IMG/VR virus record: IMGVR_UViG_2609459792_000007
Length of the DNA stretch: 64,000 nucleotides
DNA from: a virus
Taxonomy: Duplodnaviria; Heunggongvirae; Uroviricota; Caudoviricetes
Direction: 5' to 3' (one strand)
This document shows positions 4,709 to 62,750 of the stretch, piece by piece (within the stretch, counting starts at the first letter, position 1; each line of letters begins with the position of its first letter). Below the pieces are notes generated by a model. It saw only the letters and a program-made list of their open reading frames with translations. It was not told the origin of the DNA and did not search any database. Both the position numbers and the translations under genes were made by a program.

Positions 4709-4720
4709 TCCTCTTTAAAT

Positions 4721-4748: not shown

Positions 4749-4751
4749 CCC

Positions 4752-4768: not shown

Positions 4769-4825
4769 TGCCTTATCTGATTTGTGAAAATGATTTCACT
4801 GAAGCAACTTAATAAGGAAACCATC

Positions 4826-5200
4826 ATGGGACTTGATATCTATATCGAGACGCAGCCTAAAAACGATCTGAATAACGAGGCATCCAGAAAGCAGGTTGCT
4901 TACTTCCGTAAGTTCAATGCGCTCGTTGGGTGGATGGAGCGCAACGTAGGTGAAGTCGAAAATTGTGAGCTTTTAGAATTAACGATGAATGACATTTGTT
5001 TTCTGAAGGCTCATTTGATGCACATAAACGAAAGTAATTGCGAAGAGTACTTGCCTACCCGGGAAGGTTTTTTCTTCGGCAGTCAGGAGTACGATGAAGG
5101 TTACTGGCATGATGTGGGGCAGTTGAAAGAGCTTGTGGAAGATCTGATTAAGAACCACGACTTTCACAATAACAGACTGACCTTCTGCGCCTGGTGGTAA
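4826..5200 (+). CDS. hypothetical protein
   Basis: ATG 4826 with RBS aaggaaac; ORF track start at 4784. Confidence 0.6.
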   Translation: MGLDIYIETQPKNDLNNEASRKQVAYFRKFNALVGWMERNVGEVENCELLELTMNDICFLKAHLMHINESNCEEYLPTREGFFFGSQEYDEGYWHDVGQLKELVEDLIKNHDFHNNRLTFCAWW

Positions 5201-5202
5201 AT

Positions 5203-5346
5203 ATGGGCGATTTCAAGAAACGCCTGAAGGAAAGAGCCGAGATGGTCAGAAAGCGAAACGCCTCTTCTGTCATCAGATACGCAAGGCAGTTTAGTCGCAA
5301 CAACAAATCAGTTGAGGAAAAGATCCTTAGCGTAATCGGGCGATAA
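5203..5346 (+). CDS. possible small basic protein (47 aa), below ORF-track size cutoff
   Basis: ATG 3 nt after the upstream stop; K/R-rich translation MGDFKKRLKERAEMVRKRNA...; ends just before terminator. Confidence 0.3.
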   Translation: MGDFKKRLKERAEMVRKRNASSVIRYARQFSRNNKSVEEKILSVIGR

Positions 5347-5349
5347 TTA

Positions 5350-5377
5350 TTAAGGCCACCAGCATTGGTGGCCTTAA
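5350..5377 (+). terminator. hairpin terminator, copy 1 of a twin element
   Basis: ttaaggccacca-gcat-tggtggccttaa. Confidence 0.6.
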
Positions 5378-5501
5378 ATGACTTTTAATAACCGAAGGTT
5401 AGTTTGAAACCTGGCTATCAACTTCCAGAACCTTTCTTGTGTATTCAGCCTGTATTAACTTCTTTTATGCCTTATCTACACTGCGATAATTACACCAACA
5501 A

Positions 5502-5518
5502 GAAAACAACATGTTTAC
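5502..5518. promoter_or_regulatory. operator variant GAAAACAACATGTTTAC (family A)
   Basis: Preceded by GATAAT (5485-5490) plus tacaccaac spacer as at 3345 and 5970. Confidence 0.5.
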
Positions 5519-5535
5519 GCAGTGAGGATATGCTC

Positions 5536-5817
5536 ATGACTGATTTCACCATTACCCCTAAAGCACAAAATGTATTCCTTGAATCATGGCTGGACTTGCC
5601 GGAAACAGAACAGCAAGAAATGGATCATGTGGATTATGACGAGCAGGTAAGCACGCGATTCTTCCACTTTGAGGGCTGCGTTTACGACATTGCCGACTTC
5701 ATGCGAGATGACCGCTTCCCTGAATGGCACGCCAGTTATCCACTAAACGCCTTTGCCATGCTGATGATCCGTGTGGATGATTCAGGGGATACCATCGACA
5801 TCGGTCTGCTCCACTAA
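5536..5817 (+). CDS. hypothetical small acidic protein
   Basis: ATG 5536 with RBS gagga 7 nt upstream; D/E-rich. Confidence 0.6.
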   Translation: MTDFTITPKAQNVFLESWLDLPETEQQEMDHVDYDEQVSTRFFHFEGCVYDIADFMRDDRFPEWHASYPLNAFAMLMIRVDDSGDTIDIGLLH

Positions 5818-5820
5818 AGA

Positions 5821-5848
5821 TTAAGGCCACCAATGCTGGTGGCCTTAA
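5821..5848 (+). terminator. hairpin terminator, copy 2 of twin element (loop inverted)
   Basis: ttaaggccacca-atgc-tggtggccttaa; same stem as 5350 with loop gcat changed to atgc. Confidence 0.6.
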
Positions 5849-5986
5849 ATGACCATCCTGTTTCCCGCAGGCTAAAAACACCAACCTCTTACCTCCAGGC
5901 AACCGACAAACCCACCTGTTCCCGTCCGGCTACCGCAACTTTCCACTTTGACGCCTTATTCGTACAACGATAATTAACACCAACAA

Positions 5987-6002
5987 GAAAACAATTTGTT
6001 AT
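5987..6002. promoter_or_regulatory. sigma70-like promoter plus family A operator GAAAACAATTTGTTAT
   Basis: TTTGAC (5946-5951), 16-nt spacer, GATAAT (5968-5973), then the dyad, then RBS aagga. Confidence 0.6.
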
Positions 6003-6021
6003 TTACGATAAGGAATTAATC

Positions 6022-6504
6022 ATGAATTTTATCGCTACTGTAAACGCACCCGCACATGGCAATATCGCTGTAACGTTCTCTGACATTGAAAAACGAGTAC
6101 TTGGTGCATGGCGCGACAATGAGACGGTAGAACTGTCAGCACAAGAAAAATGCATTATTGCACGCGACATCATTGGCAATCGTCGTTACTCGCGGGTATT
6201 TGAGAAAGCGTATGTGGTAAATTCTGGGTTCGGAACGTTCGTCTTTCCGGTGCGCTCCGGGCGATTCTGCCAGTCCAAGCTGATTGAGTTCGCTACGCAG
6301 ATTTCTGTCTGGATTAAAACTCAATCGTCGTTCAAATTTTCCGACGATGAAGCAGTATCGCAGGGGATGCGGATCGCCAACAATGCGATTAAATGCAAAA
6401 ACATTACGTATACCGCTGGCGTTGACACATGGAAACTGTTTTGCGCTAACTTTATGCTGAATGTATACGCAAGCAACCGCATCCACATCCTTGATGGCGT
6501 GTAA
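6022..6504 (+). CDS. hypothetical protein (160 aa)
   Basis: ATG with RBS aaggaa; preceded by promoter/operator module. Confidence 0.65.
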   Translation: MNFIATVNAPAHGNIAVTFSDIEKRVLGAWRDNETVELSAQEKCIIARDIIGNRRYSRVFEKAYVVNSGFGTFVFPVRSGRFCQSKLIEFATQISVWIKTQSSFKFSDDEAVSQGMRIANNAIKCKNITYTAGVDTWKLFCANFMLNVYASNRIHILDGV

Positions 6505-6513
6505 CTGAGAAGA

Positions 6514-6535
6514 GGGCCAGAAACGGCCCTTTCTC
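6514..6535 (+). terminator. hairpin terminator
   Basis: gggcc-agaaac-ggccc followed by tttctc. Confidence 0.6.
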
Positions 6536-6553
6536 TATAGCCACCAGCTGCCG

Positions 6554-6633
6554 CAGGGAAATTTTCAGAAACGGCGAGGAACGTATTCATGAGCCGACGG
6601 GAAACGGCCAGGATTTTTTCGGGAAACGGCTGC
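6554..6633. repeat. second iteron-like cluster TTTTC(A/G)GGAAACGGC
   Basis: cagaaacggcgagg 6566, cgggaaacggccagg 6598, cgggaaacggctgc 6620; last two exactly 22 bp apart. Confidence 0.55.
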
Positions 6634-7088
6634 ATTCGCCTTTATGTAGAAAAAACATCGGGAAGCTGGTGGAATCCAACCAGCGGTTGTCGGACAGGCG
6701 AGCGGGGAAAATTATGATGACTTTCGTCGCCTGATACATCCAGATTTCTTTCGTAGCGTAATCACATACGTGATTAAGTGGTGTGATTATGTGAAAAATC
6801 ACGCGCACATAATACGCGAGCGGACACAGAACAACACAAAATGCCGATCCGCGCCGACAAATAAACGCGGATCACATAGCAAGACTAAAAGCCAATGATT
6901 AACCATACGCTATAGCGCAATATAACGCGTTTTAAGCGCGTTAATGTGTTAAGTAATGGGTATGTACTGGCAAGGATATAAAAGCGCGTCTATGGCGTTA
7001 TTTTGGCGCTTATTTTTATGTTGTTGGAGTGAGTTAAAGACAATAAAAAACGCCCCATCATGGGCGGGTTATGGGGGGAGTATTGAAA

Positions 7089-7128
7089 AAAAAAAAAGCG
7101 CCCATGGGGGGCGCTCGATTTTATTTGT
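7089..7128. terminator. bidirectional hairpin terminator
   Basis: A-run, gcgccc-catgg-ggggcgc, T-run; ends the minus-strand 8274-7121 operon. Confidence 0.7.
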
Positions 7129-7351
7129 GTAAACTGATTTTAAATCCCATTTCTACAAACGCTTTTAACATTAAAAATATATCAGCGTCGTTCACGTCTG
7201 CTTTTTTTCGCTCCTGGTCGCTCAATAAATCAATTTTACGCGTTGTTTCATCGATAAACTCGACTGCGCGCCCAGCGTAACCAGCGATCCCAGCGATGCG
7301 ATTAACATAATATTCGTTATGGACGTTAACGCCAGCGATAAGAACAAACAT
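7121..7351 (-). CDS. hypothetical protein (76 aa)
   Basis: ORF in AT-rich minus-strand block. Confidence 0.4.
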   Translation of the reverse strand: MFVLIAGVNVHNEYYVNRIAGIAGYAGRAVEFIDETTRKIDLLSDQERKKADVNDADIFLMLKAFVEMGFKISLHK

Positions 7352-7371
7352 GATTAAGCTCCTTAAAAAAA

Positions 7372-7620
7372 TTAAATAGAATTTTGAAGTTTTCCGATTA
7401 ATGCGCTTAAACGTAAGTATTCACGTTTGCGCTTGCAATCTCGCTTGCTGTTAAGCAAATCAGAAAACGTAAAATTTAATTGGTCGCGTTGCGCGATTAA
7501 ATCATCGATTAATTCTAGTTTATAAGCGCGATACTTTGCGCGATATTCCGCGCGGATCTTGTCATAGCTGACCATTTTCAAAGCTCCTTTAAAGCGCCCA
7601 TAGTGGGCGCTTGATTCCAT
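7372..7620 (-). CDS. hypothetical protein (start uncertain)
   Basis: ORF in AT-rich minus-strand block; K/R-rich. Confidence 0.4.
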   Translation of the reverse strand: MESSAHYGRFKGALKMVSYDKIRAEYRAKYRAYKLELIDDLIAQRDQLNFTFSDLLNSKRDCKRKREYLRLSALIGKLQNSI

Positions 7621-7623
7621 TAA

Positions 7624-8274
7624 TTACGCTTTGAAAGCATCAGCTAAATAATTGTAGAAATCATTTTTAATGAAGCGATATTGCTGAGTACCAGCTTTCG
7701 CGCTCCCAGCTCCTTTGACTTTTTCAACAAGTCCAAGACGTTCGCAAAGATTGATCAACTGGTTGGCTTGAGTATAGCCAGCGTCCAATTTAATTTCACA
7801 CGCTTTTTTAGCTTCATTCATTAAATCGAAAACAGCGCCATTAGTGAACGTGTCGATCTCGTCGTTAATCATATCGATTAAAGCGAATACACGAGATCCT
7901 GACATATCAGCGACGGAATAAACACATTTGCCAGCTTTAATGGATTTAACCAGATAAACCAGTTTTTCCAGAGAATAACTATTAGTCATTGCATCACGGA
8001 AAAATACTTCTGGCGCTTGTTTGCTTGCTTTAATCGCATAGTAGAAAACAGAGCATAATTTTTCGTCTTCTACAGCGTTTACAACGTTGTTGATGAAGTA
8101 AGCAAGTTTAGTGGTCGCAGCTTGCATATTTGCTTTGTCTGCTTTAGTGTGCGTACCATTTTTATAATGTTCATTATATGTTTGAGTTGCCAGATCTGCT
8201 TTTTCGCGCAGTTCATCGGATACAATGGAAGCAGCTTCAACGATGGATTTTTTAGAAATGATAATGTTAGCCAT
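7624..8274 (-). CDS. hypothetical protein (216 aa)
   Basis: Long ORF in AT-rich block; no recognisable motif. Confidence 0.6.
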   Translation of the reverse strand: MANIIISKKSIVEAASIVSDELREKADLATQTYNEHYKNGTHTKADKANMQAATTKLAYFINNVVNAVEDEKLCSVFYYAIKASKQAPEVFFRDAMTNSYSLEKLVYLVKSIKAGKCVYSVADMSGSRVFALIDMINDEIDTFTNGAVFDLMNEAKKACEIKLDAGYTQANQLINLCERLGLVEKVKGAGSAKAGTQQYRFIKNDFYNYLADAFKA

Positions 8275-8558
8275 GATAATTTTTCCTTATGTAAATTTAA
8301 AATTTATTGTCGTTAGCGTCTTCGCTTTCGACGAGTTCAATTATCGATATGCGAAAAAAGATTGCAAGTGTTTTTTTTAAATTTTTTTGCAGGGATGAAA
8401 GTCCTAGAAATAAAAGCGAGATCGTCGAAGGTGTTCCCTAAATAAATAATTGATTGCGGCTTTAGACCTTATATATATTTAGGTTATTTGATTTGTAGAT
8501 ATAAAGAAGTGATGTGAAAAATAATAACCGGACTTAGCCGGTTATTAACCTTATAGAT

Positions 8559-8870: not shown

Positions 8871-9395
8871 TCAAAAAGGCAAAATTCGTTCAACCCAATC
8901 GAACAAAACAACTATTTTTCTACCGTTCTCGACACGTAGTGTAACCTGACAAGCATCTGCGCCTGCTGACACCCCCTCAATTTCACGGCCATCCGCCATG
9001 TACACCCTTATAGATTTGTTTGCTTTGTAGGCTTGGTTGCAAATTGCAAAAAAATCGCGGCGTGATGGCCGATTATCGACATAATCAGGGTGAACTGTTA
9101 GTCGACCTTTGAAATCGTGAGCGATACTGTCAACCACACCTGATTCAATTGTACTAATGCGTTCAAGTGGGAGCCTTATACGATTTTCTTTGTCAAAAGG
9201 GGCTGGGCAAAGGTCAACTTTGTTACGAGATGGCATGAGGCCATAAACGTACATGCAAAACGCCTGGCCATCTTCGAGAGTGACCCTTACAGGAATTTGT
9301 TCTCTGCGCCAGAACATCAGTAGTTTTTCAACGTTAGTGTAATCTCGCGGCCAGAGTTCAGCTTGGATACCGTAGGTAATATCTTTGGTTGTCAT
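8871..9395 (-). CDS. hypothetical protein
   Basis: ORF; likely start MTTKD at 9395 overlapping upstream stop. Confidence 0.5.
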   Translation of the reverse strand: MTTKDITYGIQAELWPRDYTNVEKLLMFWRREQIPVRVTLEDGQAFCMYVYGLMPSRNKVDLCPAPFDKENRIRLPLERISTIESGVVDSIAHDFKGRLTVHPDYVDNRPSRRDFFAICNQAYKANKSIRVYMADGREIEGVSAGADACQVTLRVENGRKIVVLFDWVERILPF

Positions 9396-9399
9396 GTCA

Positions 9400-9822
9400 T
9401 CACAGAGTTGTTGGCAGAATGTCGATGTCACCAGAATTGCTGGTGAACACCCTGAACGCTTTTGTGTCTCCATTCTTCAGAGTCGTTTCTCGCTCTTGAC
9501 GAGCGGGGTTTAGAGCACATAAACCTGCACCTTCAAGAGATGCACCCACAATTAATTCTCCGGCATTTAAATGGAAAGTCGCTTTTTCGCCTGTAGCCAG
9601 TTTTGCGACAGTTTCGCCATTGATGAAAATGGAAGCATCACATCCAGCTCCTACAAAACCTGTGTCTCTCATTACCACCAACGTAGCTGGCGCTGCGCTT
9701 TGATACTTGAACACTTTGGCCTGCGGTGCTGGTTTGGCGTCATGGATTGATATTGGACGTGATTGGCACGCGGTAAGCATCAACACTGGTAACGTTAGTA
9801 GAGGGAGAAGCGAGTATTTCAT
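9400..9822 (-). CDS. putative lipoprotein
   Basis: MKYSLLPLLTLPVLMLTAC: signal peptide with lipobox LTAC. Confidence 0.6.
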   Translation of the reverse strand: MKYSLLPLLTLPVLMLTACQSRPISIHDAKPAPQAKVFKYQSAAPATLVVMRDTGFVGAGCDASIFINGETVAKLATGEKATFHLNAGELIVGASLEGAGLCALNPARQERETTLKNGDTKAFRVFTSNSGDIDILPTTL

Positions 9823-11777: not shown

Positions 11778-11796
11778 TAAGTAAGTGATTACTTAG
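11778..11796. promoter_or_regulatory. family B motif TAAGTAAGTGATTACTTAG
   Basis: Inverted TAAGTA / TACTTA in divergent intergenic region between helicase and ParB-like genes. Confidence 0.45.
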
Positions 11797-14987: not shown

Positions 14988-15011
14988 TCGGTCTGGGAGC
15001 TTATTTAAAGA

Positions 15012-15066
15012 CCTGCATCTGTATATATAAATAATAAGTAACTTATTAAATATATACGGAAGCAGG
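15012..15066. repeat. 55-bp imperfect palindromic element, copy 1
   Basis: cctgcatctgtatatataaataataagtaacttattaaatatatacggaagcagg; near-identical copy at 47817-47871. Confidence 0.8.
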
Positions 15067-15102
15067 CTTCGTAAGACATGCCAGACCTAATTAAACACCC
15101 CA

Positions 15103-15815: not shown

Positions 15816-17071
15816 TGGCAATCCCGTCCTCGCTCAGTCTTGTGCAACTGCATTCTGGACAGATGAAAGTCTTCCAGTCTCCGCATCGATTTAAAGTTGT
15901 TTGTGCTGGTCGACGCTGGGGAAAATCCCGGTTGTCGATCTCCACTATTATTCGTGCGGCGGCAAAGGAAAAAAAGCAAAGAGTCTGGTATGTCGCTCCT
16001 ACTTACCAGATGGCTCGCCAGATTTTGTGGGACGATCTACAGGAAGTTCTGCCTCGTAAGTGGGTTAGGAAAAAGAACGACACCACGATGACAATCGTGT
16101 TGAAGAACGGTTCGGAGATCGCCCTCAAAGGTGCTGATAAGCCTGACACTCTGCGCGGCGTAGCGTTGCATTTTGTAGTGCTTGATGAATTTCAGGATAT
16201 GAAGGCTGACACCTGGTACAAGGTGTTACGACCTACTCTTTCATCGACACGCGGCGGTGCACTGATCATTGGTACGCCAAAAGGCTTCTCGGAATTTCAC
16301 AAACTGTGGACTATAGGCCAGAACGTAGAGCTGCAAAGAAAGGGACAGTGGAAGAGCTGGCAGTTTGTAACTGCCGATTCTCCGTTTGTACCTACGGCGG
16401 AAATTGAAGCTGCTAAGAACGATATGGACCCGAAATCGTTCGCTCAGGAGTACCTGGCGAGCTTTGAGAACATGTCCGGGCGCGTTTACTACCCGTTCGA
16501 TCGTAACGTGCATGTAAAACCGCTTCAGTTCAACCCTCGGTTGCCTATATGGGTAGGGCAGGACTTCAACATTGACCCGATGTCTTCAGTAATTTTGCAA
16601 CCTCAGCCAAATGGTGAGCTATGGGCAATTGATGAATTGGTGCTCTTTTCCTCTAACACGGCAGAGGTTTGTGATGAGCTTGAGAGACGCTTCTGGCGCT
16701 GGAAATCACAGATAACGGTATTTCCAGATCCGGCAGGTGCTTATCGCCAACATGCTCGCGGGGAGTCTGACGTCGACATATTCAAAGAGAAGGGATTCTT
16801 ACGTGTCGATTATTCGAAAAAGCACCCGCCAATTGCGGATCGTGTTAATGCTGTTAACCGAATGCTGATGACCGCATCTGGAGATATCCGGCTGTATATC
16901 GATCCGAAGTGCAAGCATTTGATTGATTCACTGGAAAAAGTCATCTACAAGCCTGGAACACGAGATATGGATAAGACAGGTGGCATTGAGCATAGTGCAG
17001 ACGCATTGGGCTATCCAGTACATCGTAGGTATCCAGTCAAAAACCGTGTTATTCTTGGTGGTTCTCGATAG
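15815..17071 (+). CDS. terminase large subunit
   Basis: ATPase motif VVCAGRRWGKS, Walker B-like VVLDEF, C-terminal nuclease-like region; precedes portal. Confidence 0.8.
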   Translation: MAIPSSLSLVQLHSGQMKVFQSPHRFKVVCAGRRWGKSRLSISTIIRAAAKEKKQRVWYVAPTYQMARQILWDDLQEVLPRKWVRKKNDTTMTIVLKNGSEIALKGADKPDTLRGVALHFVVLDEFQDMKADTWYKVLRPTLSSTRGGALIIGTPKGFSEFHKLWTIGQNVELQRKGQWKSWQFVTADSPFVPTAEIEAAKNDMDPKSFAQEYLASFENMSGRVYYPFDRNVHVKPLQFNPRLPIWVGQDFNIDPMSSVILQPQPNGELWAIDELVLFSSNTAEVCDELERRFWRWKSQITVFPDPAGAYRQHARGESDVDIFKEKGFLRVDYSKKHPPIADRVNAVNRMLMTASGDIRLYIDPKCKHLIDSLEKVIYKPGTRDMDKTGGIEHSADALGYPVHRRYPVKNRVILGGSR

Positions 17072-17084
17072 GTAAGTAATTATC
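17067..17084. promoter_or_regulatory. family B motif GATAGGTAAGTAATTATC
   Basis: Between terminase stop and portal start. Confidence 0.45.
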
Positions 17085-17097
17085 TAAGGTTATTCAA

Positions 17098-18672
17098 ATG
17101 GAATTGAACGACAAACAAATTAAGGATCTGGTGGCGCGACGCCACCCGGAATACGAAAAGAAAAAAGAACATTGGGACTTCCTCGCCAGCACTTACGCTG
17201 GCGGGCGTGGTTGGTTTACAGACAATATCTTTCGTTACTTTAAAGAGGGAGATCAGGAGTTTAAGGAGCGAGTTGAACGTGCTTATCGCTTCAACCACAC
17301 TCGTGAGGTGGTAAACCTCATCAACAAATATCTCTTTAAAGAAGACATTCATAGAAATATCGAAGAGGCACCAGAGCAGATCCGCAATTTCTGGAAACGT
17401 GCGACTCGCCAGAATGCCTCTATTGACTCATTTATGGCCGCTATTGATTTGCAGTCGTCTATTTACGGTCGCATATGGGTTGTTGTCGATAGCACGATGA
17501 GTGGTGATGTTGAGTCAGTAGCTGACGAGAAAAAGAAAGATGCTCGCGCCTACGCCTACTGGATTTCACCTCAGCAAATGCTGGATGTGGCATGGGACGA
17601 CGACGGGAATATGTTGTGGGCGTTAATTGTGGAAGTCGCTCGTGATGACGCAGATCCTTTTACTTCTACAGGTCAGGAATACCAACGTTATCGTCTGTGG
17701 ACACAAAACGAGTGGTATCTGTTCCGTGAGGAAGTGAAGAAGGGCGCTGGTGGAGCAGGTCGCCGTCAGGCAAAAGTTATTTTAGAGGATAGCGGTGAGC
17801 ATAATCTCGGCGTAGTTCCTGTGTTTCCTGTTGATTGTATTGGAGAAAGTGAATCACCGTATTTCAGCCCATCGTTGATCGATGATATCGCTTATCTTGA
17901 TCGTGCGGTTGCAAACTATCTGTCAAACCTTGATGCCATTATTCAGGATCAGACATTTAGCCAGTTGGCTATACCGGTACAGTCGCTTTTACCTGGTGAT
18001 GAAAACCACACTAAAGTGCTTGAAATGGGCACAAAGCGAGTCTTCACCTACGATTCTGAAGGTGGAAACCAGCCGTTTTATCTGTCACCAGACCCGAAAC
18101 AAGCTCAGATGATCATCACTACGATTAAGACGGTGATTAACGAAATCTACCATTCAGTTGGTGTAGCTGGTGAGCGAACGAAGCAGGACAACGCACAGGG
18201 AATCGATAATTCATCTGGTGCCGCAAAAATGTATGACTTCCAGCGTGTAAATAGCTTGCTTGTCACAAAAGCAGAGCGTCTGGAAAGGGCTGAACGCCAA
18301 ATCATGCTACTGGTTGCGAAATGGATGGGGGTAGATCTGGACGAAGACCACTCTTTAATTGCATATCCAGAAAGTTTCGATATTCGTGGCCTTACTGATG
18401 AATTTTCTGTTGCCGAGAAACTGTCATTACTTCAGGCACCGGACTCTGTACGTCGTCACCAGATGGAAATGCTTATTGAGAAGATTTTCCCGAACATTAC
18501 TGAGGCGATGAAAAAGGAATTTGATAAAGATCTCTTGAATTTTCCTCCAAAAAATGATCTAAATACCCTTGAAAATAAGTCAGTACTTACTTATGATCGT
18601 GGTGCAGCCCAAGAAAGCGGGCAAGATCAACCCCGAGGGAATGGGGACTCATCTACTCAAGAGAACGAGTGA
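17098..18672 (+). CDS. portal protein
   Basis: 524-aa ORF between terminase and scaffold genes; RBS aaggttattcaaATG. Confidence 0.75.
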   Translation: MELNDKQIKDLVARRHPEYEKKKEHWDFLASTYAGGRGWFTDNIFRYFKEGDQEFKERVERAYRFNHTREVVNLINKYLFKEDIHRNIEEAPEQIRNFWKRATRQNASIDSFMAAIDLQSSIYGRIWVVVDSTMSGDVESVADEKKKDARAYAYWISPQQMLDVAWDDDGNMLWALIVEVARDDADPFTSTGQEYQRYRLWTQNEWYLFREEVKKGAGGAGRRQAKVILEDSGEHNLGVVPVFPVDCIGESESPYFSPSLIDDIAYLDRAVANYLSNLDAIIQDQTFSQLAIPVQSLLPGDENHTKVLEMGTKRVFTYDSEGGNQPFYLSPDPKQAQMIITTIKTVINEIYHSVGVAGERTKQDNAQGIDNSSGAAKMYDFQRVNSLLVTKAERLERAERQIMLLVAKWMGVDLDEDHSLIAYPESFDIRGLTDEFSVAEKLSLLQAPDSVRRHQMEMLIEKIFPNITEAMKKEFDKDLLNFPPKNDLNTLENKSVLTYDRGAAQESGQDQPRGNGDSSTQENE

Positions 18673-20482: not shown

Positions 20483-20493
20483 TCAGTGAAGTA

Positions 20494-20507
20494 GATAAGT
20501 AATTATC
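20494..20507. promoter_or_regulatory. family B motif GATAAGTAATTATC
   Basis: Same word as at 17067; sits between capsid stop and hairpin. Confidence 0.45.
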
Positions 20508-20515
20508 TATGTTAA

Positions 20516-24066: not shown

Positions 24067-24086
24067 TTAGTAAGTATATACTTACT
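24067..24086. promoter_or_regulatory. family B perfect palindrome TAGTAAGTATATACTTACTA
   Basis: 20-bp perfect dyad just upstream of major tail gene. Confidence 0.5.
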
Positions 24087-30562: not shown

Positions 30563-30611
30563 GTATCTGGATAAGTAAGTACTAATTTACTATCATTGTG
30601 GCGCTGACAGG

Positions 30612-37482: not shown

Positions 37483-37525
37483 AATAAGTAGGTACTTACT
37501 TAATGGTGGGCAAGGATAGCCCACC
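37483..37525. promoter_or_regulatory. family B motif plus GGTGGGC hairpin upstream of fibre gene
   Basis: aaataagtaggtacttactta then ggtgggc-aaggata-gcccacc, then RBS aaggag. Confidence 0.5.
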
Positions 37526-42868: not shown

Positions 42869-42888
42869 TAAGTAAGTACACACCTACA
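42864..42888. promoter_or_regulatory. family B motif GATAAGTAAGTAC
   Basis: Upstream of lysis genes; followed by TTGACT -35-like hexamer at 42925. Confidence 0.45.
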
Positions 42889-47705: not shown

Positions 47706-47816
47706 TATTGCATCTCTTAGCTACTGACTAATGCGTTCTATTTTACACATAAGTTTTTAATCAATTTAACAGGCTCAAAGTGTAGAGCTTCTGGGCGTCT
47801 AAGACGACAAGTTATG

Positions 47817-47871
47817 CCTGCTTCTGTATATATAAATAATAAGTAACTTATTAAATATATACGGAAGCAGG
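47817..47871. repeat. 55-bp imperfect palindromic element, copy 2
   Basis: Identical to copy at 15012 except one base (cctgcTtctg vs cctgcAtctg). Confidence 0.8.
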
Positions 47872-47952
47872 TCTTTTAAAAGACACCACCAGAACAACTC
47901 CCTTCCGTTTCCACTTCCAAAAACTGCCACCAGTCGCTATCATCCGCTCATT

Positions 47953-47976
47953 GTGATAAGTAAGTAACTACCTACC
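47953..47976. promoter_or_regulatory. family B motif GATAAGTAAGTAAC
   Basis: About 25 nt upstream of the 47988 gene. Confidence 0.45.
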
Positions 47977-51386: not shown

Positions 51387-51410
51387 AAAATAAGTAGATG
51401 ATTACTTATC
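51387..51410. promoter_or_regulatory. family B motif, reverse orientation
   Basis: aataagtagatgattacttatc. Confidence 0.45.
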
Positions 51411-52265: not shown

Positions 52266-52285
52266 TGATAGGTAAGTACAAGATT
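52266..52285. promoter_or_regulatory. family B motif GATAGGTAAGTAC
   Basis: Ends about 12 nt before the ATG of the 52290 gene. Confidence 0.45.
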
Positions 52286-52289
52286 ATTT

Positions 52290-54910: not shown

Positions 54911-54933
54911 TGATAAGTATTTACTTACTTATC
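54911..54933. promoter_or_regulatory. family B motif GATAAGTA-N7-ACTTATC
   Basis: Inverted GATAAGT arms at the start of the structured region before the tRNAs. Confidence 0.45.
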
Positions 54934-55681: not shown

Positions 55682-55756
55682 GATGGTGTAGCTCAGCGGT
55701 AGAGCAGTTGGCTGTTAACCAACTGGTCGGTGGTTCGAATCCACCCACCATCGCCA
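55682..55756 (+). tRNA. tRNA-Asn (anticodon GTT)
   Basis: Manual cloverleaf: acceptor gatggtg/caccatc, D arm gctc-agcggta-gagc, anticodon loop ctGTTaa, T loop ttcgaat. Confidence 0.85.
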
Positions 55757-55761
55757 ATTTA

Positions 55762-55848
55762 GGGGAGTTAGTCCGTAGAGGTAGCGGGGTAGACTGTAAA
55801 TCTACTGTCATGGAGACTCGGGTGGTTCGACTCCATCACTCCCCACCA
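55762..55848 (+). tRNA. tRNA-Tyr (anticodon GTA), long variable arm
   Basis: Acceptor ggggagt/actcccc, anticodon stem-loop gtaga-ctGTAaa-tctac, long variable arm, T loop ttcgact, 3' CCA. Confidence 0.7.
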
Positions 55849-55852
55849 AATT

Positions 55853-55928
55853 GCCGGTTTAGCTCAGTTGGTAGAGCGCCTGCCTTGTAAGCAGGATGTC
55901 AGCGGTTCGAGTCCGTTAACCGGCACCA
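55853..55928 (+). tRNA. tRNA-Thr (anticodon TGT)
   Basis: Acceptor gccggtt/aaccggc, D arm gctc-agttggta-gagc, anticodon loop ctTGTaa, T loop ttcgagt, 3' CCA. Confidence 0.8.
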
Positions 55929-56152
55929 ATACAACGATAAGATCATTACGGTTAATCGTCGTTCATGTGCACAATGACTGGTCGAAAGGTAGTGATCTTA
56001 CCGTTGTGGTGGATTCGCAGACTGATGCGATAGCTTTCTTGGATGTTAGGGAAATGCGGCCGCAAATCTTCCCTTTCGCGAGCGGTGATCGTCCGTAGTC
56101 CTAATTGGCTGCACCGTATGCCGGAGATTCAGTACCGGCCACCACAACGGCC

Positions 56153-56239
56153 GGAGAGTAGGGAGCATGGTGCTCAAGCGGTCTTGAAAACCGTCCCATT
56201 GCGCAAGCGATGATGGTTCGATTCCATTACTCTCCGCCA
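56153..56239 (+). tRNA. tRNA-Ser (anticodon TGA), long variable arm
   Basis: Acceptor ggagagt/actctcc, anticodon stem-loop gcggt-ctTGAaa-accgt, long variable arm, T loop ttcgatt, 3' CCA. Confidence 0.7.
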
Positions 56240-56811: not shown

Positions 56812-57053
56812 CGATCACTATCTACGGACGAGATAACTGCTCATACTGCAAACGTGCGGTCGAGCTGGCGAAGCAACTAAAGGGACATGGCTACGGTGAT
56901 TATGAGTACATAGACATCACCACTGCCGGTATCGACAAGAAAAAACTAAGTGAAATTGTTGGTAAACCGGTAGAGACTATCCCCCAAGTACTGATCGATG
57001 GTCAACCGATTGGCGGATACACAGAACTGGCTGCATACGTCAGCACCCTCTGA
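56808..57053 (+). CDS. glutaredoxin-like (NrdH-type) redox protein
   Basis: CSYC active-site motif near N-terminus; 81 aa. Confidence 0.75.
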   Translation: MTITIYGRDNCSYCKRAVELAKQLKGHGYGDYEYIDITTAGIDKKKLSEIVGKPVETIPQVLIDGQPIGGYTELAAYVSTL

Positions 57054-57131
57054 TTTTAACGGCTCACAGGAGCCGTTTTTATTACCACCAAACTCACTCC
57101 CATTTCCCTTAAAATTCAAAAAACAACGTCA

Positions 57132-57164
57132 AAATGATTCCATACCTACTATGTATGGAATCAT
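57132..57164. other. candidate site-specific recombination site: perfect 13-7-13 inverted repeat
   Basis: AATGATTCCATAC-ctactat-GTATGGAATCATT, 100 bp upstream of tyrosine recombinase gene. Confidence 0.55.
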
Positions 57165-57217
57165 TAGTGAAAATGAGTTACTTTTACTCTTGATCCTATA
57201 AGAATCTATGCCTAATA

Positions 57218-57237
57218 TACTGTTTACTTATACAGTG
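57218..57237. promoter_or_regulatory. LexA-box-like sequence upstream of recombinase gene
   Basis: TACTGT-ttacttat-ACAGTG fits CTGT-N8-ACAG; 27 bp upstream of ATG 57264. Confidence 0.45.
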
Positions 57238-57263
57238 AATCGGCGTAACTCGGTGATTGTCAT

Positions 57264-58367
57264 ATGAAAAATAGCTTTGACAGAGCACGCGCTGCGGAGA
57301 ACACCTCAAAAGAGGCGATTGAGTATCTCGAAAGAGCATCTCAAATGCAGGCCGTTATGATCTCGCAGGTTAGCATTGATATGAGATTCTCGGACGCATT
57401 CATGTTATTCACTCGCTTATCTCTGCTGATAACCAGACGTCGGCCAGAGATCGCTGTTCATTGTATTTTGATACATGTTTTGCCGCACATTGCCGATGTA
57501 AAAGTAAGTGACATTAATAGGTTCATGGTGAACCAGCTGGTCAACCCACTAATACTGGATGGCAAAATTGTTATGGGCCGCCGCGTTTTCTCTCTGATGA
57601 AACAGTTCCTTAGCTGGTGCGCCTTCCAGGGGATGATAGACGTGTCACCGTTAAACGATATGTCACTAAACAAAGTTGCCGGTGGCGCAAAGCCCACACC
57701 TCGCGAGCGGAAGCTGACCGACGCAGAGGTATGGGTGTTCTGGAATATATGGGACTACTTCAATGTGTGCGCTGGTACAAAATGGGCGGCCAGGCTGTGT
57801 CTTGTATCAGCAAGACGACCTGACGAAGTACTGCGGGCTAAAAAAAGTGAGTTCAATCTTAAGCGTGGGGTTTGGAATCAAGGCAAGAGAAACAAGTCAG
57901 CACGTGAGCATTCGCTGCCTTTAAGCACATTAATGCGCACATGCATTGAAGAGTTGTTCGAATACGGTAAAGACAGCCAGTGGCTCGTGCCTTCGAATAA
58001 AAAAATCGGGAAAGACCTTCCTATGTCTAAAGTGGCAATAGCCCAGGCATTACGTCGTATTCTGGAACGACCAGAACTGATGGAGCTTGAGCCATTTACA
58101 CCCCGAGATTTGCGCCGTACTGCGCGTAGTTACTTCCCAGCATTAGGCATAAGCCAGGAGGTATCACGCAAAATCATGAACCACAGTCTTGAGGGGATAG
58201 ATCGGGTCTACGACCGGCACGATTATATGGACGAGATGCGAGACGCCTTAGAAAGTTTCTCGACGTACATCGCATCAATCGTAGAGCAACCGGATTTAGA
58301 CGAAATTGACCACAAATTCAAGGGAGATCGTCTATCAACAGAGCTTATTCGTGTAAATTTTTCATAG
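57264..58367 (+). CDS. tyrosine recombinase / integrase family protein
   Basis: C-terminal catalytic-domain-like residues (ARRPDE, DLRRTARSY, MNHS, RVYDRHDY). Confidence 0.7.
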   Translation: MKNSFDRARAAENTSKEAIEYLERASQMQAVMISQVSIDMRFSDAFMLFTRLSLLITRRRPEIAVHCILIHVLPHIADVKVSDINRFMVNQLVNPLILDGKIVMGRRVFSLMKQFLSWCAFQGMIDVSPLNDMSLNKVAGGAKPTPRERKLTDAEVWVFWNIWDYFNVCAGTKWAARLCLVSARRPDEVLRAKKSEFNLKRGVWNQGKRNKSAREHSLPLSTLMRTCIEELFEYGKDSQWLVPSNKKIGKDLPMSKVAIAQALRRILERPELMELEPFTPRDLRRTARSYFPALGISQEVSRKIMNHSLEGIDRVYDRHDYMDEMRDALESFSTYIASIVEQPDLDEIDHKFKGDRLSTELIRVNFS

Positions 58368-58748
58368 AGACTTTATGGCCTCAACAACCTTTTGTGATGC
58401 GCCTTTCTCTTTACCGAATCGCTCGTTATACGCAGCAAGAACCTGTTTTTCGTCCTCGTTAAGAGGAGCGGTGCCTTCTTTGTATAAAAATGCTGCGAGT
58501 TCAGGTTGGCGTTCTTCCAGCACCATCATCATAAGACGACTTGGTTCAATACCCAGCGCCAGCGCCAGCGGACGAACCTTATCGATAGGCAAAGGAATTT
58601 TGCCACTTTTAATTAAAGAAAGGTTGTTGGCATTTTTATAACCAATAAGTCTGGCTATTTGGGCCTGACTCATAGGTGAGGATTCAATCAGCCCTGCGAT
58701 AAAAGCAGCATAGCGACTTTCTATAAATTCAATCTTGTTGTCAGACAT
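58362..58748 (-). CDS. XRE-family helix-turn-helix transcriptional regulator
   Basis: HTH-like segment SQAQIARLIGYKNANNLSLIKSGK in a 128-aa protein. Confidence 0.7.
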   Translation of the reverse strand: MSDNKIEFIESRYAAFIAGLIESSPMSQAQIARLIGYKNANNLSLIKSGKIPLPIDKVRPLALALGIEPSRLMMMVLEERQPELAAFLYKEGTAPLNEDEKQVLAAYNERFGKEKGASQKVVEAIKSL

Positions 58749-58786
58749 TGTTACAACCTTTGCGCGTTTAATTCTCTCTGGTAAGT

Positions 58787-58800
58787 GCTTACCGATATTA
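58787..58800. promoter_or_regulatory. palindrome GGTAAG-TG-CTTACC upstream of regulator gene
   Basis: Perfect dyad about 40 bp upstream of the regulator start; related to family B. Confidence 0.45.
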
Positions 58801-58999
58801 CATCAAAGGTTAGGGTTGTAAAGCTATTATCATTTTTTTCGGCAGGCACTTGTAAGACCGAGCAAAGGTCCATGCATGGAGAAAAACTAGCCCAAAATAG
58901 GTAAGAAAATTAACTTGCATCTGATATAGATGTATTCAGTATTGATACAAATTTTAGTAGTATTCCTTACCATAGTATAAGTTAGAATGGATTGATTGA

Positions 59000-59212
59000 A
59001 TGAAAACCACTATTTCCAGCCTAATCGCTCTTGAGATCGGACACGTACAGAAATTAGCTGATGAGTGTGTAGCTGACATCCTCACCGATCTACCGAATGA
59101 GCAGATTCAGGTTGGTGTGAATGACACAACTGGCTTTATATTCGAACTTAACAACAAACGCTTCACGCTTCTCAATACCGGCTCCGGGTCTTTAGCCGTC
59201 AGAATCTGTTAA
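59000..59212 (+). CDS. possible small protein (70 aa)
   Basis: ORF in AT-rich intergenic region; followed by hairpin ctgcgcgaa...ttcgcgcag. Confidence 0.3.
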   Translation: MKTTISSLIALEIGHVQKLADECVADILTDLPNEQIQVGVNDTTGFIFELNNKRFTLLNTGSGSLAVRIC

Positions 59213-59310: not shown

Positions 59311-61419
59311 ATGTCTAAAAAACGTTCCATCAAAGAGGTTCAGGACTTCCGTGACAGTGTAAAACGAGTAGTCGCTCTCCTTTCAGGTAAAAACATCCCT
59401 GTTGCAGAACGAGGGGACGACGCTTATGTACGCTATAACGATGATGGAGAGCCAATTCTCGTAAACATCCCATCAATCCCGGATAACGCAACACCGGCAT
59501 TGATGAATGCTGTGCGCGGATTTCTCGATCATGAGGTTGCTCACATTTTGTTTACCGATATTCGTGTGTCCAACAAAATGAGAGAAAAAGGACGCGTTCC
59601 TTCCTGGTCGCTATGGAATGCCTTAGAAGACGTGTTCATCGAGCGAAAAATGGGTCAGGTCTTTAACGGAACAAGACGTAATCTGATGGCAACTCAGCGC
59701 CTTATAATCGAAAAAGTCTTTAAACCAAAGGCTTCAGAGGCTATTGCTTATTGTGGCAAAGATCAGCGCGCGCTTTTTCTAAACTTCTTTCTCTGTCCGG
59801 TTGTAAGAGCCTGGGATGGCCAAGCACCGTTCGTAGATTTCATGGATGAATATTGGCCTGTCATTGAGAAACCAATTTCATTATTAAAAGAACATGGTAT
59901 CGATGTGGCCGTGCGTAACATGTCTTGCACCGAGGATTGTGTAAAGGTGGCTGCGACCATAGCTAAGATCCTCAAAGACACTGAAAGTGAAAGCAAAGGT
60001 AAGGAGTCAGCTCCGGGAAAAACTTCCGATCCTTCAGACGCTGACCAGACGGATGCCTCTGGAGAAAACAATGAAGACAACGAAGATCATGAGACACCCT
60101 CATCGTTAGATAATCACAAATCTATTAAATCAGAGTCACATAGTAAGCACAAACATGATAATAACGACAGTGATGATTCAGATAATCCTGAATCATCAGA
60201 AACAATATTCGATGATACAGAAAATGATAAAGCGGTATCAGATTCTGATGCTTCTGATAACGCGGCGTCAGAATCATTAACCGCTGACCACGAAAAAAGA
60301 AAAACGACAGAAGACGGCTCTTCAGACATTCCAACTCCGTCAAAAATGAGTCTGGAAGAGGCTTTAGAGGAGTTGGATAGCATGGAAGATGAAGTCGGAG
60401 GCATGACAGAAGATGCGCTATCCGAAACGATTAAAAGCGAGTTAACAGAAAGCTCGAAAAGCGAATACAGGCCATACAATCGCTCATACGACTTCATCGG
60501 CTCGATTGATCAGGCAGAAGCCCATATCAAACGGCTTATTAAAACATTCTCCGATATTGATTTAGGTGGATATCCAATCAGCCGTTATCGCATCGTTCCT
60601 GAAGGCAACCAACTCTTCGACAAATATATTGAAAAGCACCTTTCGTCAGGTGTTTCGTCGACGCTGGCAAAAGACCTGGAACGTGCAATAGCAAGCAGAA
60701 ACAGAGTTCAGTTTATACCTGGCCAGCGTCGGGGGCGCATTCATGGTTCAAGTATCTACAGATTAACAATGAATGATGATCGCGTGTTTCGTAAAAAAGA
60801 AGAATCTAAAGCCGTTAACGCCTGTGTTCAACAAGTGATTGATTTATCGGGTTCAATGAGTGGCGAAACGATAAAACTAGCTCTTGCAAGTGCATATACC
60901 ATCGCCGATGCACTTGATCGAATAAATGTTCCCAACATTATCACCGGCTTCACTACATTTGGCAGTCATATGGCAGCAGGAGAACTTAAGGCTATCAAAT
61001 ATGAGTTCTCTCGCTTTGAATCTTTAATGCTACCTATCATCAAAAATTGGAATGAAAAAGCAAATTCTCGCGAAGTTCGCTCACGTATGGGGTGCGTAGG
61101 CTACACATTCCCACTTCTTAATAACGTGGATGGTGAAAGCATAGCCAGCCTTGCATCGTTATTTTCCGGTCGCTTGGAGGACAGGAAGATCATGCTTGTT
61201 CTGAGCGATGGCGCGCCGTGGGCTGTTGGGAGAGGTTTTGACGCCCATTTGCGTTCGGTTACGAAGCAAATTGAAACGCAGACTGACATTGATTTGATGG
61301 CAATTGGCATCATGACTGATGCACCGGAGAGATTTTACGCAAATCATGCCCTGGTAACTAGTGTTGATAGTCTTGGTTCATCTGTAGTTACTGAACTATC
61401 TCGTATCATTTTGAAGTAA
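59311..61419 (+). CDS. CobT-like von Willebrand factor A domain protein with acidic linker
   Basis: MIDAS-like motif VIDLSGSMSG; long D/E/S-rich low-complexity region. Confidence 0.65.
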   Translation: MSKKRSIKEVQDFRDSVKRVVALLSGKNIPVAERGDDAYVRYNDDGEPILVNIPSIPDNATPALMNAVRGFLDHEVAHILFTDIRVSNKMREKGRVPSWSLWNALEDVFIERKMGQVFNGTRRNLMATQRLIIEKVFKPKASEAIAYCGKDQRALFLNFFLCPVVRAWDGQAPFVDFMDEYWPVIEKPISLLKEHGIDVAVRNMSCTEDCVKVAATIAKILKDTESESKGKESAPGKTSDPSDADQTDASGENNEDNEDHETPSSLDNHKSIKSESHSKHKHDNNDSDDSDNPESSETIFDDTENDKAVSDSDASDNAASESLTADHEKRKTTEDGSSDIPTPSKMSLEEALEELDSMEDEVGGMTEDALSETIKSELTESSKSEYRPYNRSYDFIGSIDQAEAHIKRLIKTFSDIDLGGYPISRYRIVPEGNQLFDKYIEKHLSSGVSSTLAKDLERAIASRNRVQFIPGQRRGRIHGSSIYRLTMNDDRVFRKKEESKAVNACVQQVIDLSGSMSGETIKLALASAYTIADALDRINVPNIITGFTTFGSHMAAGELKAIKYEFSRFESLMLPIIKNWNEKANSREVRSRMGCVGYTFPLLNNVDGESIASLASLFSGRLEDRKIMLVLSDGAPWAVGRGFDAHLRSVTKQIETQTDIDLMAIGIMTDAPERFYANHALVTSVDSLGSSVVTELSRIILK

Positions 61420-61432
61420 TTAAAACAGCCTT

Positions 61433-61457
61433 AATGATAAGTAACTACTTACCATAG
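61433..61457. promoter_or_regulatory. family B motif GATAAGTAACTAC
   Basis: Between the CobT-like and CobS-like genes. Confidence 0.45.
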
Positions 61458-61514: not shown

Positions 61515-62750
61515 ATGACTACTACTGCACTGCAAAATGATAAAAATCCTTCTGATTACCTTGTTTGCAAGTGGTGCGGCAAATCATTTCACTATTTTAA
61601 GTCCCATGTAGCCAATGGTAATTGCGAGGGCATTCCTGAGTCAGTAAAAGATGCCGATCCTGACACCGTACTGAAAATGTACACAACGCAGTTTCCAGAT
61701 GAACCAACGCTATCGAAAAAGGCACTTGATGCAATTCAAGCTAAACGTGCCGAGCAAAAAAGCGAAATGGCGAAATCTTCTGGCTTGACCAGTAGCCCAG
61801 GCTACACAGGCACAGTTGAGTACAAGACAGATCTGGTCGCAGCTCACGAACTGCTAAACGTAACGGTGGAAGAACTCGGAACAAAACGTGGGACGCCGCT
61901 CATGGTTAGCGTCAACGTCAATACGCCGTATCCAGAGTTCGTTCCAGAAGTGAAGAAGGGCTACGTATATGGCGACTTCGAACTTATCAAAGATATTTTC
62001 ATGATGCTTGAACTTGGCATACCTGGCTATTTGTGGGGTCATGCAGGAACAGGCAAATCGTCATTGCCTACACAGCTATGTGCTTTGCTCAATCGTCCGT
62101 TGATCCGTGCCCAACATACAGCATCAATGGAAGAGGCACATGTTACGGGGCAAATTCTGGCGCGTGATGGCTCTACGTATTTCGAGCCTGGCTTGCTTGC
62201 GCTCGCAATGAAGCATGGCTGGGTTTACCTCGCGGATGAATACGACTTTGCGTTTCCACAAATTCTTGGCGTGTATCAGCCAGTGCTGGAAGGTGAGGCG
62301 TTGGTCATCAAAGAGGCAACTCCAGAATGGCGTCGCATTACTCCGCATGAACGGTTTGCTTTCATTGGCACTGGCAACACAAACGGTTCTGGTGATGAAA
62401 CCGGCTTGTACCAGGGTACAAACATCCAGAACGCCGCGAACTTTTCACGTTTTGGCATCGTTTCGAATGTGAAATACATGAGCAAAGAGGCAGAGATCAA
62501 CATGTTGATAAATGCCGGTATCGTGGATGAATACGCAGAAAAGATGGTTAAGTTTGCCGGTATCGTTCGCGATGGATACGAAGAACACCTTATCAGTCAG
62601 CCAATTGGCCCTCGTGAACTTTTGTTGTCGGCCAAGATTGGAATGATGCGAGGCGACTTTGTGACAGGTATTGAGCGTTCTTTCATTAACAAACTCCCTT
62701 CAGCTTCTGCACAAGCGGCTCGTGAAGTTGTTCAAAAAATATTTGGTTAA
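61515..62750 (+). CDS. CobS/MoxR-like AAA+ ATPase
   Basis: Walker A GHAGTGKSS, Walker B VYLADEYD. Confidence 0.7.
   Translation: MTTTALQNDKNPSDYLVCKWCGKSFHYFKSHVANGNCEGIPESVKDADPDTVLKMYTTQFPDEPTLSKKALDAIQAKRAEQKSEMAKSSGLTSSPGYTGTVEYKTDLVAAHELLNVTVEELGTKRGTPLMVSVNVNTPYPEFVPEVKKGYVYGDFELIKDIFMMLELGIPGYLWGHAGTGKSSLPTQLCALLNRPLIRAQHTASMEEAHVTGQILARDGSTYFEPGLLALAMKHGWVYLADEYDFAFPQILGVYQPVLEGEALVIKEATPEWRRITPHERFAFIGTGNTNGSGDETGLYQGTNIQNAANFSRFGIVSNVKYMSKEAEINMLINAGIVDEYAEKMVKFAGIVRDGYEEHLISQPIGPRELLLSAKIGMMRGDFVTGIERSFINKLPSASAQAAREVVQKIFG

Follow-up and report, generated by a model that had tools for sequence, protein, structure and literature searches.

The DNA considered here, called the window throughout, is a stretch of 64,000 nucleotides from the Caudoviricetes record IMGVR_UViG_2609459792_000007 and, to judge from its relatives, is an SSU5-like phage-plasmid. 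Between 56400 and 63000, it is 97% identical to Escherichia phage Cyrano, known in E. coli LF82 as the phage-plasmid pLF82, and its CobT/CobS part is 75% identical to Salmonella phage SSU5. The main subject is a helix-turn-helix (HTH) protein of 128 amino acids (aa), listed among the open reading frames (ORFs) of the minus strand at 58362-58748. The sequence evidence leans, if modestly, towards this protein being the lysogeny (immunity) repressor of the element, with a dyad at the start of its own transcript as its autoregulatory operator. As a gene, it would be of an ordinary kind, a phage repressor whose own promoter holds an operator. The same protein would also bind a family of 18-bp palindromes dispersed over the genome.

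Dyad and Promoter of the HTH Gene

The initial annotation had pointed to a dyad upstream of the HTH gene, which is divergent from a CobT-like operon, and this is confirmed. The sequence GGTAAGTGCTTACC at 58780-58793 consists of two perfect 6-bp arms separated by 2 bp and is located 32-45 nt before the start codon (ATG, 58748-58746). By itself, such a 6+2+6 palindrome in a 251-bp spacer is weak evidence, our own chance estimate being ~0.7 when arm spacings of 0-10 nt are allowed. The dyad is nevertheless held to be non-random because it belongs to a block that is near-invariant in relatives, because it is the sole perfect match to GGTAAGNNCTTACC in 64 kb, and because it belongs to an over-represented motif family.

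A promoter scan of the minus strand finds a -10 hexamer TAATAT (58795-58800) and, 16 nt away, a -35 hexamer TTTACA (58817-58822) that matches the consensus at 5/6 positions. A Shine-Dalgarno-like AAGG, read from the sequence, stands 9 nt before the ATG (58758-58761, minus strand). On the coding strand of the HTH gene, the arrangement is TTTACA-16 nt-TAATAT-C-GGTAAGCACTTACC. Hence, the dyad begins 2 nt past the -10 hexamer and spans the expected transcription start, and the final T of TAATAT is position 1 of the 18-bp site CTGGTAAGTGCTTACCGA (58778-58795) that encloses the dyad.

Conservation was followed in 80 IMG/VR relatives with proteins that are 57-100% identical; upstream of the gene, these give 43 distinct sequences. 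A scan of genome contigs gave only four close relatives. The block CTTTACA-N16-TAATAT-C-[G/A]GTAAG[C/T]ACTTACC, which in alignment form reads CTTTACA...TGTAATATC[G/A]GTAAG[C/T]ACTTACCA, is near-invariant in the 80 relatives. Both hexamers occupy invariant columns, whereas the spacer between them and the flanks diverge, a pattern that speaks for a genuine promoter combined with a genuine site for a protein. In relatives from Klebsiella and E. fergusonii, the centre of the dyad is TA, so that a perfect 14-bp palindrome, GGTAAGTACTTACC, results. On this comparison, the HTH gene is assigned its own sigma-70 promoter, TTTACA-16-TAATAT, with a conserved operator at the start point. As the dyad starts 2 nt after the -10 hexamer, whatever binds there should repress the HTH gene; a site lying in this way over the core promoter of the regulator's own gene is what is expected of an autoregulated repressor.

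Other half-sites occur in the same spacer. A GGTAAG at 58900 and a CTTACC at 58966 were set aside, being kept only in close relatives. Most relatives at 64-70% protein identity have a half-site TAGATAAGT that abuts the -35 hexamer of the HTH gene (ATAGATAAGTCTTTACA) and that may be a second, weaker operator; the lineage of the window lacks it and reads ATGATAATAGC there.

Since the dyad stands at the extreme 5' end of the transcript, one can also imagine that it acts in RNA, as a terminal hairpin of the HTH messenger RNA serving stability or translation, perhaps as the target of an RNA-binding protein such as the FljA-like product encoded at 8871-9473. Indeed, folding predicts a stem of 5 bp and a loop of 4 nt, and the window does contain a gene of the FljA family (PF03614, E 2.5e-84). 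However, the folding energy of the 5' untranslated region is -6.8 kcal/mol, vs. -7.8 kcal/mol for shuffled sequences (z = 0.43), and the rare variants AGTAAG.. and GATAAG.. found in relatives break the pairing without compensation. The halves of the family sites vary independently, pairs such as A with C being common at positions 3/16, and the conserved feature is the sequence, not the pairing. The uncompensated variants and the z value together make a role in RNA very improbable.

The Dispersed 18-bp Family

The dyad had also been assigned to a dispersed "TAAGTA" family, family B, and this assignment stands in an extended form. Comparison with SSU5 gives the full family motif as an 18-bp palindrome made up of four 4-bp units, TA[A/G]G TAAG YR CTTA C[Y]TA. 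The dyad corresponds to the inner 14 bp of this motif without a mismatch; by the 14-mer of the initial annotation, TAAGTA-NN-TACTTA, it matches at 10/12 positions. The idea that a 4-bp difference in half-site spacing would prevent the dyad and family B from sharing a binder was dropped, since the 18-mer holds the 14-mer in two registers. In the site of the HTH promoter, both inner units are perfect and the outer TA..TA is absent, and this inner-only form is found in all relatives.

Over-representation of the family is ~8- to 65-fold, depending on the pattern and on the mismatch threshold. In the window, TAAGTA-NN-TACTTA occurs 25 times at up to two mismatches (1.7 expected), and a 14-mer with R/Y degeneracy 31 times (4.0 expected), including a match at 58782-58795. 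The 18-mer at up to three mismatches is found 13 times in the window and 26 times in SSU5, each vs. 0.2 in shuffled sequences. The spacing of TARG-k-CYTA pairs peaks at k = 2, 6, and 10 (10, 23, and 15 counts in SSU5), and the ratio of these counts fits four independently degenerate 4-bp units. At k = 6, the half-sites are 10 bp apart, centre to centre, which is the usual geometry of an HTH dimer, and the 18-mer may therewith be able to hold two dimers offset by 4 bp.

The sites are placed between genes. Twelve of the 13 window sites are intergenic, vs. an intergenic fraction of 10.8% (p = 3e-11), and nearly every one has a positional orthologue in SSU5. They are found at the terminase/portal junction, after the capsid gene, between tail genes, and before the holin gene, as well as before genes for DnaB-like helicase, ligase, CobS, SSB, NrdA, and ThyA, at a distance of 2 to ~80 nt from the next ATG. 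At ~11 of 40 sites, a -10-like element, often TGn-extended, lies 15-20 nt downstream of the centre, which puts the site over the -35 region; the remaining sites are at gene junctions without a recognisable promoter. No -35 signal above background was seen at the dispersed sites at the geometry of the HTH promoter, and the peaks of -10-like matches at offsets -14 and +7 are mirror-image flanks of the palindrome. The possibility that the dispersed sites serve as activator boxes, each set at one distance from a -10 element, was rejected on account of the 2 to ~80 nt range, the lack of -35 enrichment, and the fact that only ~11 of 40 have a -10-like element 15-20 nt downstream.

Along the window, the first site, ATTGTAAGTACATACTTA (4251-4268), follows a terminator hairpin and overlaps the -35 hexamer and the spacer of a promoter TTGTAA-17-TAGAAT; with its SSU5 orthologue at 93166, it forms a clear terminator-promoter-operator arrangement. 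The next one, TAAGTAAGTGATTACTTA (11778-11795), is upstream of a gene with a ParB_N domain. Within the virion genes, TAGGTAAGTAATTATCTA (17069-17086) occupies the 26-bp terminase/portal junction, its SSU5 orthologue at 2032 being a perfect 18-mer; TAAGTCAGTACTTACTTA (18576-18593), at the 3' end of the portal ORF, is the only site with its centre inside a gene; and TAGATAAGTAATTATCTA (20492-20509) follows the capsid gene and is itself followed by a hairpin. Further on are TTAGTAAGTATATACTTA (24067-24084), TAAGTAAGTACTAATTTA (30572-30589), and, between tail genes, TAAGTAGGTACTTACTTA (37485-37502). The orthologue of TAAGTAAGTACACACCTA (42869-42886) in SSU5, at 27475 before the holin gene, is again a perfect 18-mer. 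TAAGTAAGTAACTACCTA (47957-47974) stands 13 nt before an ATG, and TAAGTAGATGATTACTTA (51391-51408) is followed 9 nt later by TGTAAGAAT, which resembles an extended -10 element. A weaker site with four mismatches, TAGGTAAGTACAAGATTA, is found at 52269-52286, and TAAGTATTTACTTACTTA (54914-54931) precedes the transfer RNA (tRNA) cluster. Finally, TAAGTAACTACTTACCAT (61438-61455) separates the CobT-like and CobS-like genes and is followed by the extended -10-like TGgTATATT.

The Candidate Binder and Its Rivals

The 128-aa protein had been described as an XRE-type regulator, a description that its fold and phrog_8 support and that curated family profiles do not. In PHROG, it matches phrog_8, "transcriptional regulator" (E 6.6e-12), and close homologues carry the source name "XRE family transcriptional regulator." In Pfam, HTH_19 (18.9 bits vs. 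a gathering cutoff of 30.2, E 1.5e-3) and HTH_37 (16.4 bits vs. a cutoff of 27) are both below threshold; an NCBIfam search gave no match, and nothing was found in a sequence search of the PDB. The AlphaFold (AF2) model, built on 16 homologues, has a predicted local distance difference test score (pLDDT) of 73.5 overall and of 84-90 over residues 11-80, and contains a five-helix Cro/C1 bundle with helix 2, turn, and helix 3 as in an HTH motif. Foldseek aligns its 60-75 N-terminal residues with the structures of C.AhdI, 434 Cro, 434 repressor, and SinR, at 1.5-1.9 Å. The root mean square deviation is 1.5 Å over 60 residues for C.AhdI (TM score 0.78 on the target) and 1.7 Å over 61 residues for 434 Cro, with weak E-values of ~1e-2 for these XRE-fold matches. 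Towards the C terminus, the model shows four short helices of lower confidence. The Cyrano orthologue, CYRAN_45, annotated "putative repressor," is 98% identical to the 128-aa protein; it is transcribed 10-fold over the local background in the LF82 lysogen, and ciprofloxacin induces Cyrano 39-fold (PMC9928086).

The gene is widespread, being present in 792 plasmids (at least 80% coverage), and its CobS-like neighbour is present in ~798 (at least 60% identity). The only relative named as lacking it is SSU5, isolated as a plaque-forming phage, in which no HTH homologue was found. SSU5 differs from the Enterobacter plasmid pMB2617_2 by a 6.66-kb deletion (stretch 1818-8473) between flanks that are 99% (left) and 92% (right) identical. 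The deletion extends from just after a tRNA to the end of a 70-aa ORF, so that phoH, gp49, grx, yafO, int, the HTH gene, the 70-aa ORF, and both divergent promoters are lost. SSU5 retains 26 family sites, some of them perfect 18-mers, a retention that may reflect recent loss of the module. The absence of the HTH gene from SSU5 had been considered as evidence against this protein as the binder; with SSU5 being a deletion derivative of plasmids with such similar flanks, that objection is weakened.

Two lineages of Acinetobacter baumannii phage-plasmids, NZ_CP140436.1 and NZ_CP043456.1, have the same cobS-cobT-smallORF<>HTH-int synteny. The palindrome of four units is present as well, with units that have changed and that make up the motifs TCAGTCAGTACTGACTGA and TTAGTAAGCGCTTACTAA, one in each lineage. 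Read by units, one of the motifs is TCAG TCAG TA CTGA CTGA, the 9-mers of which occur 14 times vs. 0.8 expected, and that of the other lineage is TTAGTAAG CG CTTACTAA. The recognition helices are RPNVLSMIKSGE and NQNMVSFIVRGK, vs. NANNLSLIKSGK in the window. The fact that two lineages in one host species have different motifs argues that the primary binder is encoded by the element, not by the host. The Klebsiella lineage has a near-identical helix, NANNISLIKSGR, and keeps TAAGTAAGT half-sites; in the PO552 lineage, the helix is NVNTLSIIKAGK and the units are shifted towards TATG. In all five lineages examined, a family-type site precedes the HTH gene; where hexamers are legible by eye, the site falls within the promoter or directly behind it. 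Taken with the fold, these comparisons point to the HTH protein as the probable binder of both the dyad and the dispersed sites.

Several points weigh against this assignment. Neither Pfam nor NCBIfam places the 128-aa protein in a curated family. Its own-promoter site lacks T1, A2, and T17, which are among the best-conserved positions of the dispersed sites, and, if each dimer needs TARG-N6-CYTA, this site offers only one good half-site per dimer. SSU5 grows lytically without the HTH gene, so that its sites do not need the gene there and do not point to a binder. The covariation of helix and motif comes from five lineages and yields no simple code; the helix that has diverged most, from Acinetobacter lineage 2, is paired with a motif resembling that of the enterobacterial elements, and any other element-encoded DNA-binding protein would covary equally. 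Finally, the core of the dyad, GTAAGTGCTTAC (58781-58792), fits the SlmA-binding sequence (SBS) of enterobacterial hosts at 12/12 positions and is the only perfect fit in 64 kb.

This last point leads to a reading in which the dyad and part of the family are sites for the host nucleoid-occlusion factor SlmA, of the TetR family. SlmA would repress the HTH gene at +1, and a plasmid dense in SlmA sites would be coupled to host division control. The SBS was published as GTGAGTACTCAC (Tonthat et al., 2011; PMC3020112), in which positions 1, 2, 4, and 5 have to be G, T, A, and G, any pyrimidine is accepted at position 6, and any purine at position 3, where G to A gives a dissociation constant of ~60 nM vs. 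~50 nM (PMC3020112). The tolerances at positions 3 and 6 lead to an effective specificity of GTRAGYRCTYAC. SSU5 contains three perfect fits (2035, 27478, and 78713) vs. 0.0 expected, and all enterobacterial hosts of these elements were predicted by Tonthat et al. to share the SBS. However, most dispersed sites have a mismatch at a position that SlmA requires, and the best-conserved bases of the family (T1, A2, T17, and A18) are outside the 12-bp SBS. The two Acinetobacter motifs found in one host species again speak for an element-encoded primary binder, and in lineage 1, the third position of the SBS is a pyrimidine (GTCAGTACTGAC). Chromosomal SBSs are never in promoters, and transcription regulation by SlmA is not known. 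A 1-in-1024 match among at least 100 known palindromic specificities is, by our own estimate, a coincidence that is not negligible. SlmA as the binder is thus quite improbable, and a double use, in which the operator family, as 18-mers with SBS-like cores, would also serve as an SBS set in enterobacterial hosts, is just as doubtful. If SlmA were recruited, the repressor could be tied to SlmA or plasmid copies could be protected or segregated, and division could be blocked during lytic amplification.

A less improbable alternative to the HTH protein, though still an unlikely one, is that another factor encoded by the element, such as a Cro-like or lytic regulator, binds the dyad and the family, the HTH gene being one of the targets that it shuts off. 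This factor could be the 70-aa protein encoded first in the divergent operon, for example, or else one that is encoded outside the window. The position of the site implies repression whoever binds, the own-promoter site is atypical in having the inner units only, and the 70-aa ORF is in a cro-like position and is syntenic in all lineages. In addition, the sites of SSU5 equal or surpass those of the window, as illustrated by the perfect 18-mers at 2032 and 27475, even though the HTH gene is absent. However, the deletion in SSU5 takes the 70-aa ORF as well, so that this candidate fares no better, and the identity of the SSU5 flanks to plasmids that carry the module allows the retained sites to be explained by recent loss. 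Moreover, a scan of ~20 window ORFs that were small, on the minus strand, or intergenic-flanking gave no second XRE-type regulator, and the regulator that lysogens express is the HTH gene (PMC9928086).

Mechanism, Genomic Setting, and Known Systems

If the HTH protein is the repressor, it would bind the dyad at the transcription start, as a dimer or as two offset dimers, and block initiation of its own gene. It would also occupy the dispersed 18-mers in the intergenic gaps of the virion, lysis, and DNA-metabolism genes. At about a quarter of these sites, the bound protein would cover the -35 region of promoters with a -10 element, extended or not; at the junction sites that have no promoter, it could act as a roadblock, like mycobacteriophage stoperators. 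The own-promoter site, having only the two inner units, is probably weaker and would cap the level of the repressor.

Pfam finds no Peptidase_S24 domain in the 128-aa protein, which is thus not of the type subject to RecA-stimulated self-cleavage. SOS induction must therefore be indirect. A candidate route starts from the integrase promoter (57190-57237, plus strand), made up of a -35 hexamer TTGATC (57190-57195) and, after a 17-nt spacer, a -10 hexamer TAATAT (57213-57218). Abutting this -10 hexamer is a predicted LexA box, TACTGTTTACTTATACAGTG (TACTGT-N8-ACAGTG; 57218-57237, plus strand), in which CTGT-N8-ACAG is fixed in 68 of 72 relatives and the spacer is free, as expected of a LexA-binding site. 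The tyrosine integrase gene (57264-58367, plus strand; PF00589, E 5e-10; phrog_1) and the HTH gene are convergent and overlap by 6 bp, so that transcription induced from the integrase promoter by the SOS response would run antisense through the HTH gene, towards its promoter. Antisense transcription, or transcriptional interference at the repressor gene, is a plausible way to induce an element whose repressor has no cleavage domain.

In this part of the window, four tRNAs (55682-56239) are followed by a Gp49-family gene, a glutaredoxin gene, the integrase gene, the HTH gene, and the 251-bp spacer. Cyrano carries an additional minus-strand gene between grx and int (stretch 3839-4393), CYRAN_43, which is absent from the window (57053-57264) and which is the top-expressed prophage gene in LF82, at 723-fold over background (PMC9928086). 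Beyond the spacer, and divergent from the HTH gene, are the 70-aa ORF (59000-59212; phrog_2627), which is the first gene of the divergent operon, the CobT-like vWA gene (59311-61419; PF11775, E 6e-83), and the CobS/MoxR-like AAA gene found by Pfam search (61515-62750), all on the plus strand; a DNA polymerase III alpha gene comes next. The 70-aa ORF keeps its synteny in the Acinetobacter and Klebsiella lineages, and its single-sequence AF2 model (pLDDT 47) is unusable. In the second A. baumannii lineage, a gene for a sigma-70-family sigma factor is found beside the MoxR/CobS-like gene. The divergent spacer contains a second conserved block (58920-58965), in which relatives read ATCTGATATAGA..ATTCC.TATTGATACAATAGGTAGTAGTATT, with the extended -10-like TGATACAAT where the window has TGATACAAA. 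No family site was found within this block, which presumably is the promoter or regulatory region of the operon of the 70-aa ORF and CobT.

Two features are found elsewhere in the window. The FljA-family gene (8871-9473, minus strand) encodes a 200-aa protein that strongly matches the family named "Repressor of phase-1 flagellin." Salmonella FljA is an RNA-binding translational repressor of fliC, and the gene might serve lysogenic conversion through an effect on the flagellin of the host. In addition, a long imperfect palindrome, CCTGC(A/T)TCTGTATATATAAATAATAAGTAACTTATTAAATATATACGGAAGCAGG, is present at ~15010-15075 and ~47815-47880 in the window and at ~33455 and ~78305 in SSU5, upstream of the small-terminase region and of the block of replication genes; its role may be that of a terminator working in both directions or of some other cis site.

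SSU5-like phage-plasmids, which include pHCM2 of S. Typhi, pMT1 of Y. pestis, and the pKpn and pSLy3 groups, are frequent in clinical Enterobacteriaceae and carry resistance genes. No account of lysogeny control in them was found in the literature searched. As far as was searched, a network extending from Enterobacteriaceae to Acinetobacter, the SSU5 deletion, the putatively LexA-controlled convergent integrase, and the resemblance to SlmA sites are likewise undescribed. If the HTH protein is indeed the binder, the immunity repressor, its four-unit operator code, and a genome-wide set of ~25-30 silencing sites would be identified, giving handles to induce or cure SSU5-like plasmids. The variants of the motif that are specific to each element would suggest heteroimmunity groups.

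Among known systems, the C1 protein of P1 is the master repressor of a plasmid-prophage, with many operators scattered over ~100 kb, its own gene included. In P1, the operators are 17-mers that lack symmetry, the repressor has 283 aa and does not belong to the XRE type, and the antirepressors Coi and Ant are used. The likeness is thus in the dispersed operators and in the control of the repressor's own gene, whereas here the sites are palindromic and the protein is a 128-aa protein of XRE fold; no sequence relationship to the P1 C1 system was found.

The protein itself is closer to the small Cro/C1-type repressors represented by Rep of Salmonella phage SPC32H and by CB of N15, which have no peptidase domain and are controlled by LexA-regulated antirepressors (for N15, PMC11652158). 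Rep (PDB 5d4z) is among the Foldseek matches of the HTH model and shares with it an XRE-fold N-terminal domain, a short helical C-terminal domain, and the absence of an S24 domain. SOS inducibility of the element (PMC9928086) is another common trait. In contrast to that type, the conserved LexA box here precedes the convergent integrase gene, and no antirepressor partner was identified. As for the sites, the 12-bp SBS of Enterobacteriaceae matches the dyad core, but chromosomal SBSs are located outside promoters, and the family is at least 18 bp long with conserved outer bases and differs between elements in one host species.

The mixture of promoter and junction sites, like that of the P1 C1 operators, comes closer still to the mycobacteriophage stoperators. 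There, gp71 of L5 and of Cluster A is likewise a small repressor of the HTH type whose sites, numbering in the dozens, occupy short gaps between genes, many of them away from promoters, and D29 is a repressor-less deletion derivative that has kept its stoperators, as SSU5 has kept its sites (PMC9283540; PMC5712189). L5 stoperators are asymmetric 13-bp sequences that are bound by a monomer and that function in one orientation, whereas the sites here are 18-bp palindromes of four 4-bp units. In contrast to L5 gp71, the fold here is of the Cro/C1 type and the hosts are Gram-negative, with the block to elongation being only proposed. The many dispersed intergenic sites, most of them without a promoter (13 family sites in the window, 26 in SSU5), are thus as in stoperator systems, and their palindromic form is not. 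If our reading is true, SSU5-like phage-plasmids would possess a Gram-negative, palindromic counterpart to the mycobacteriophage stoperators.

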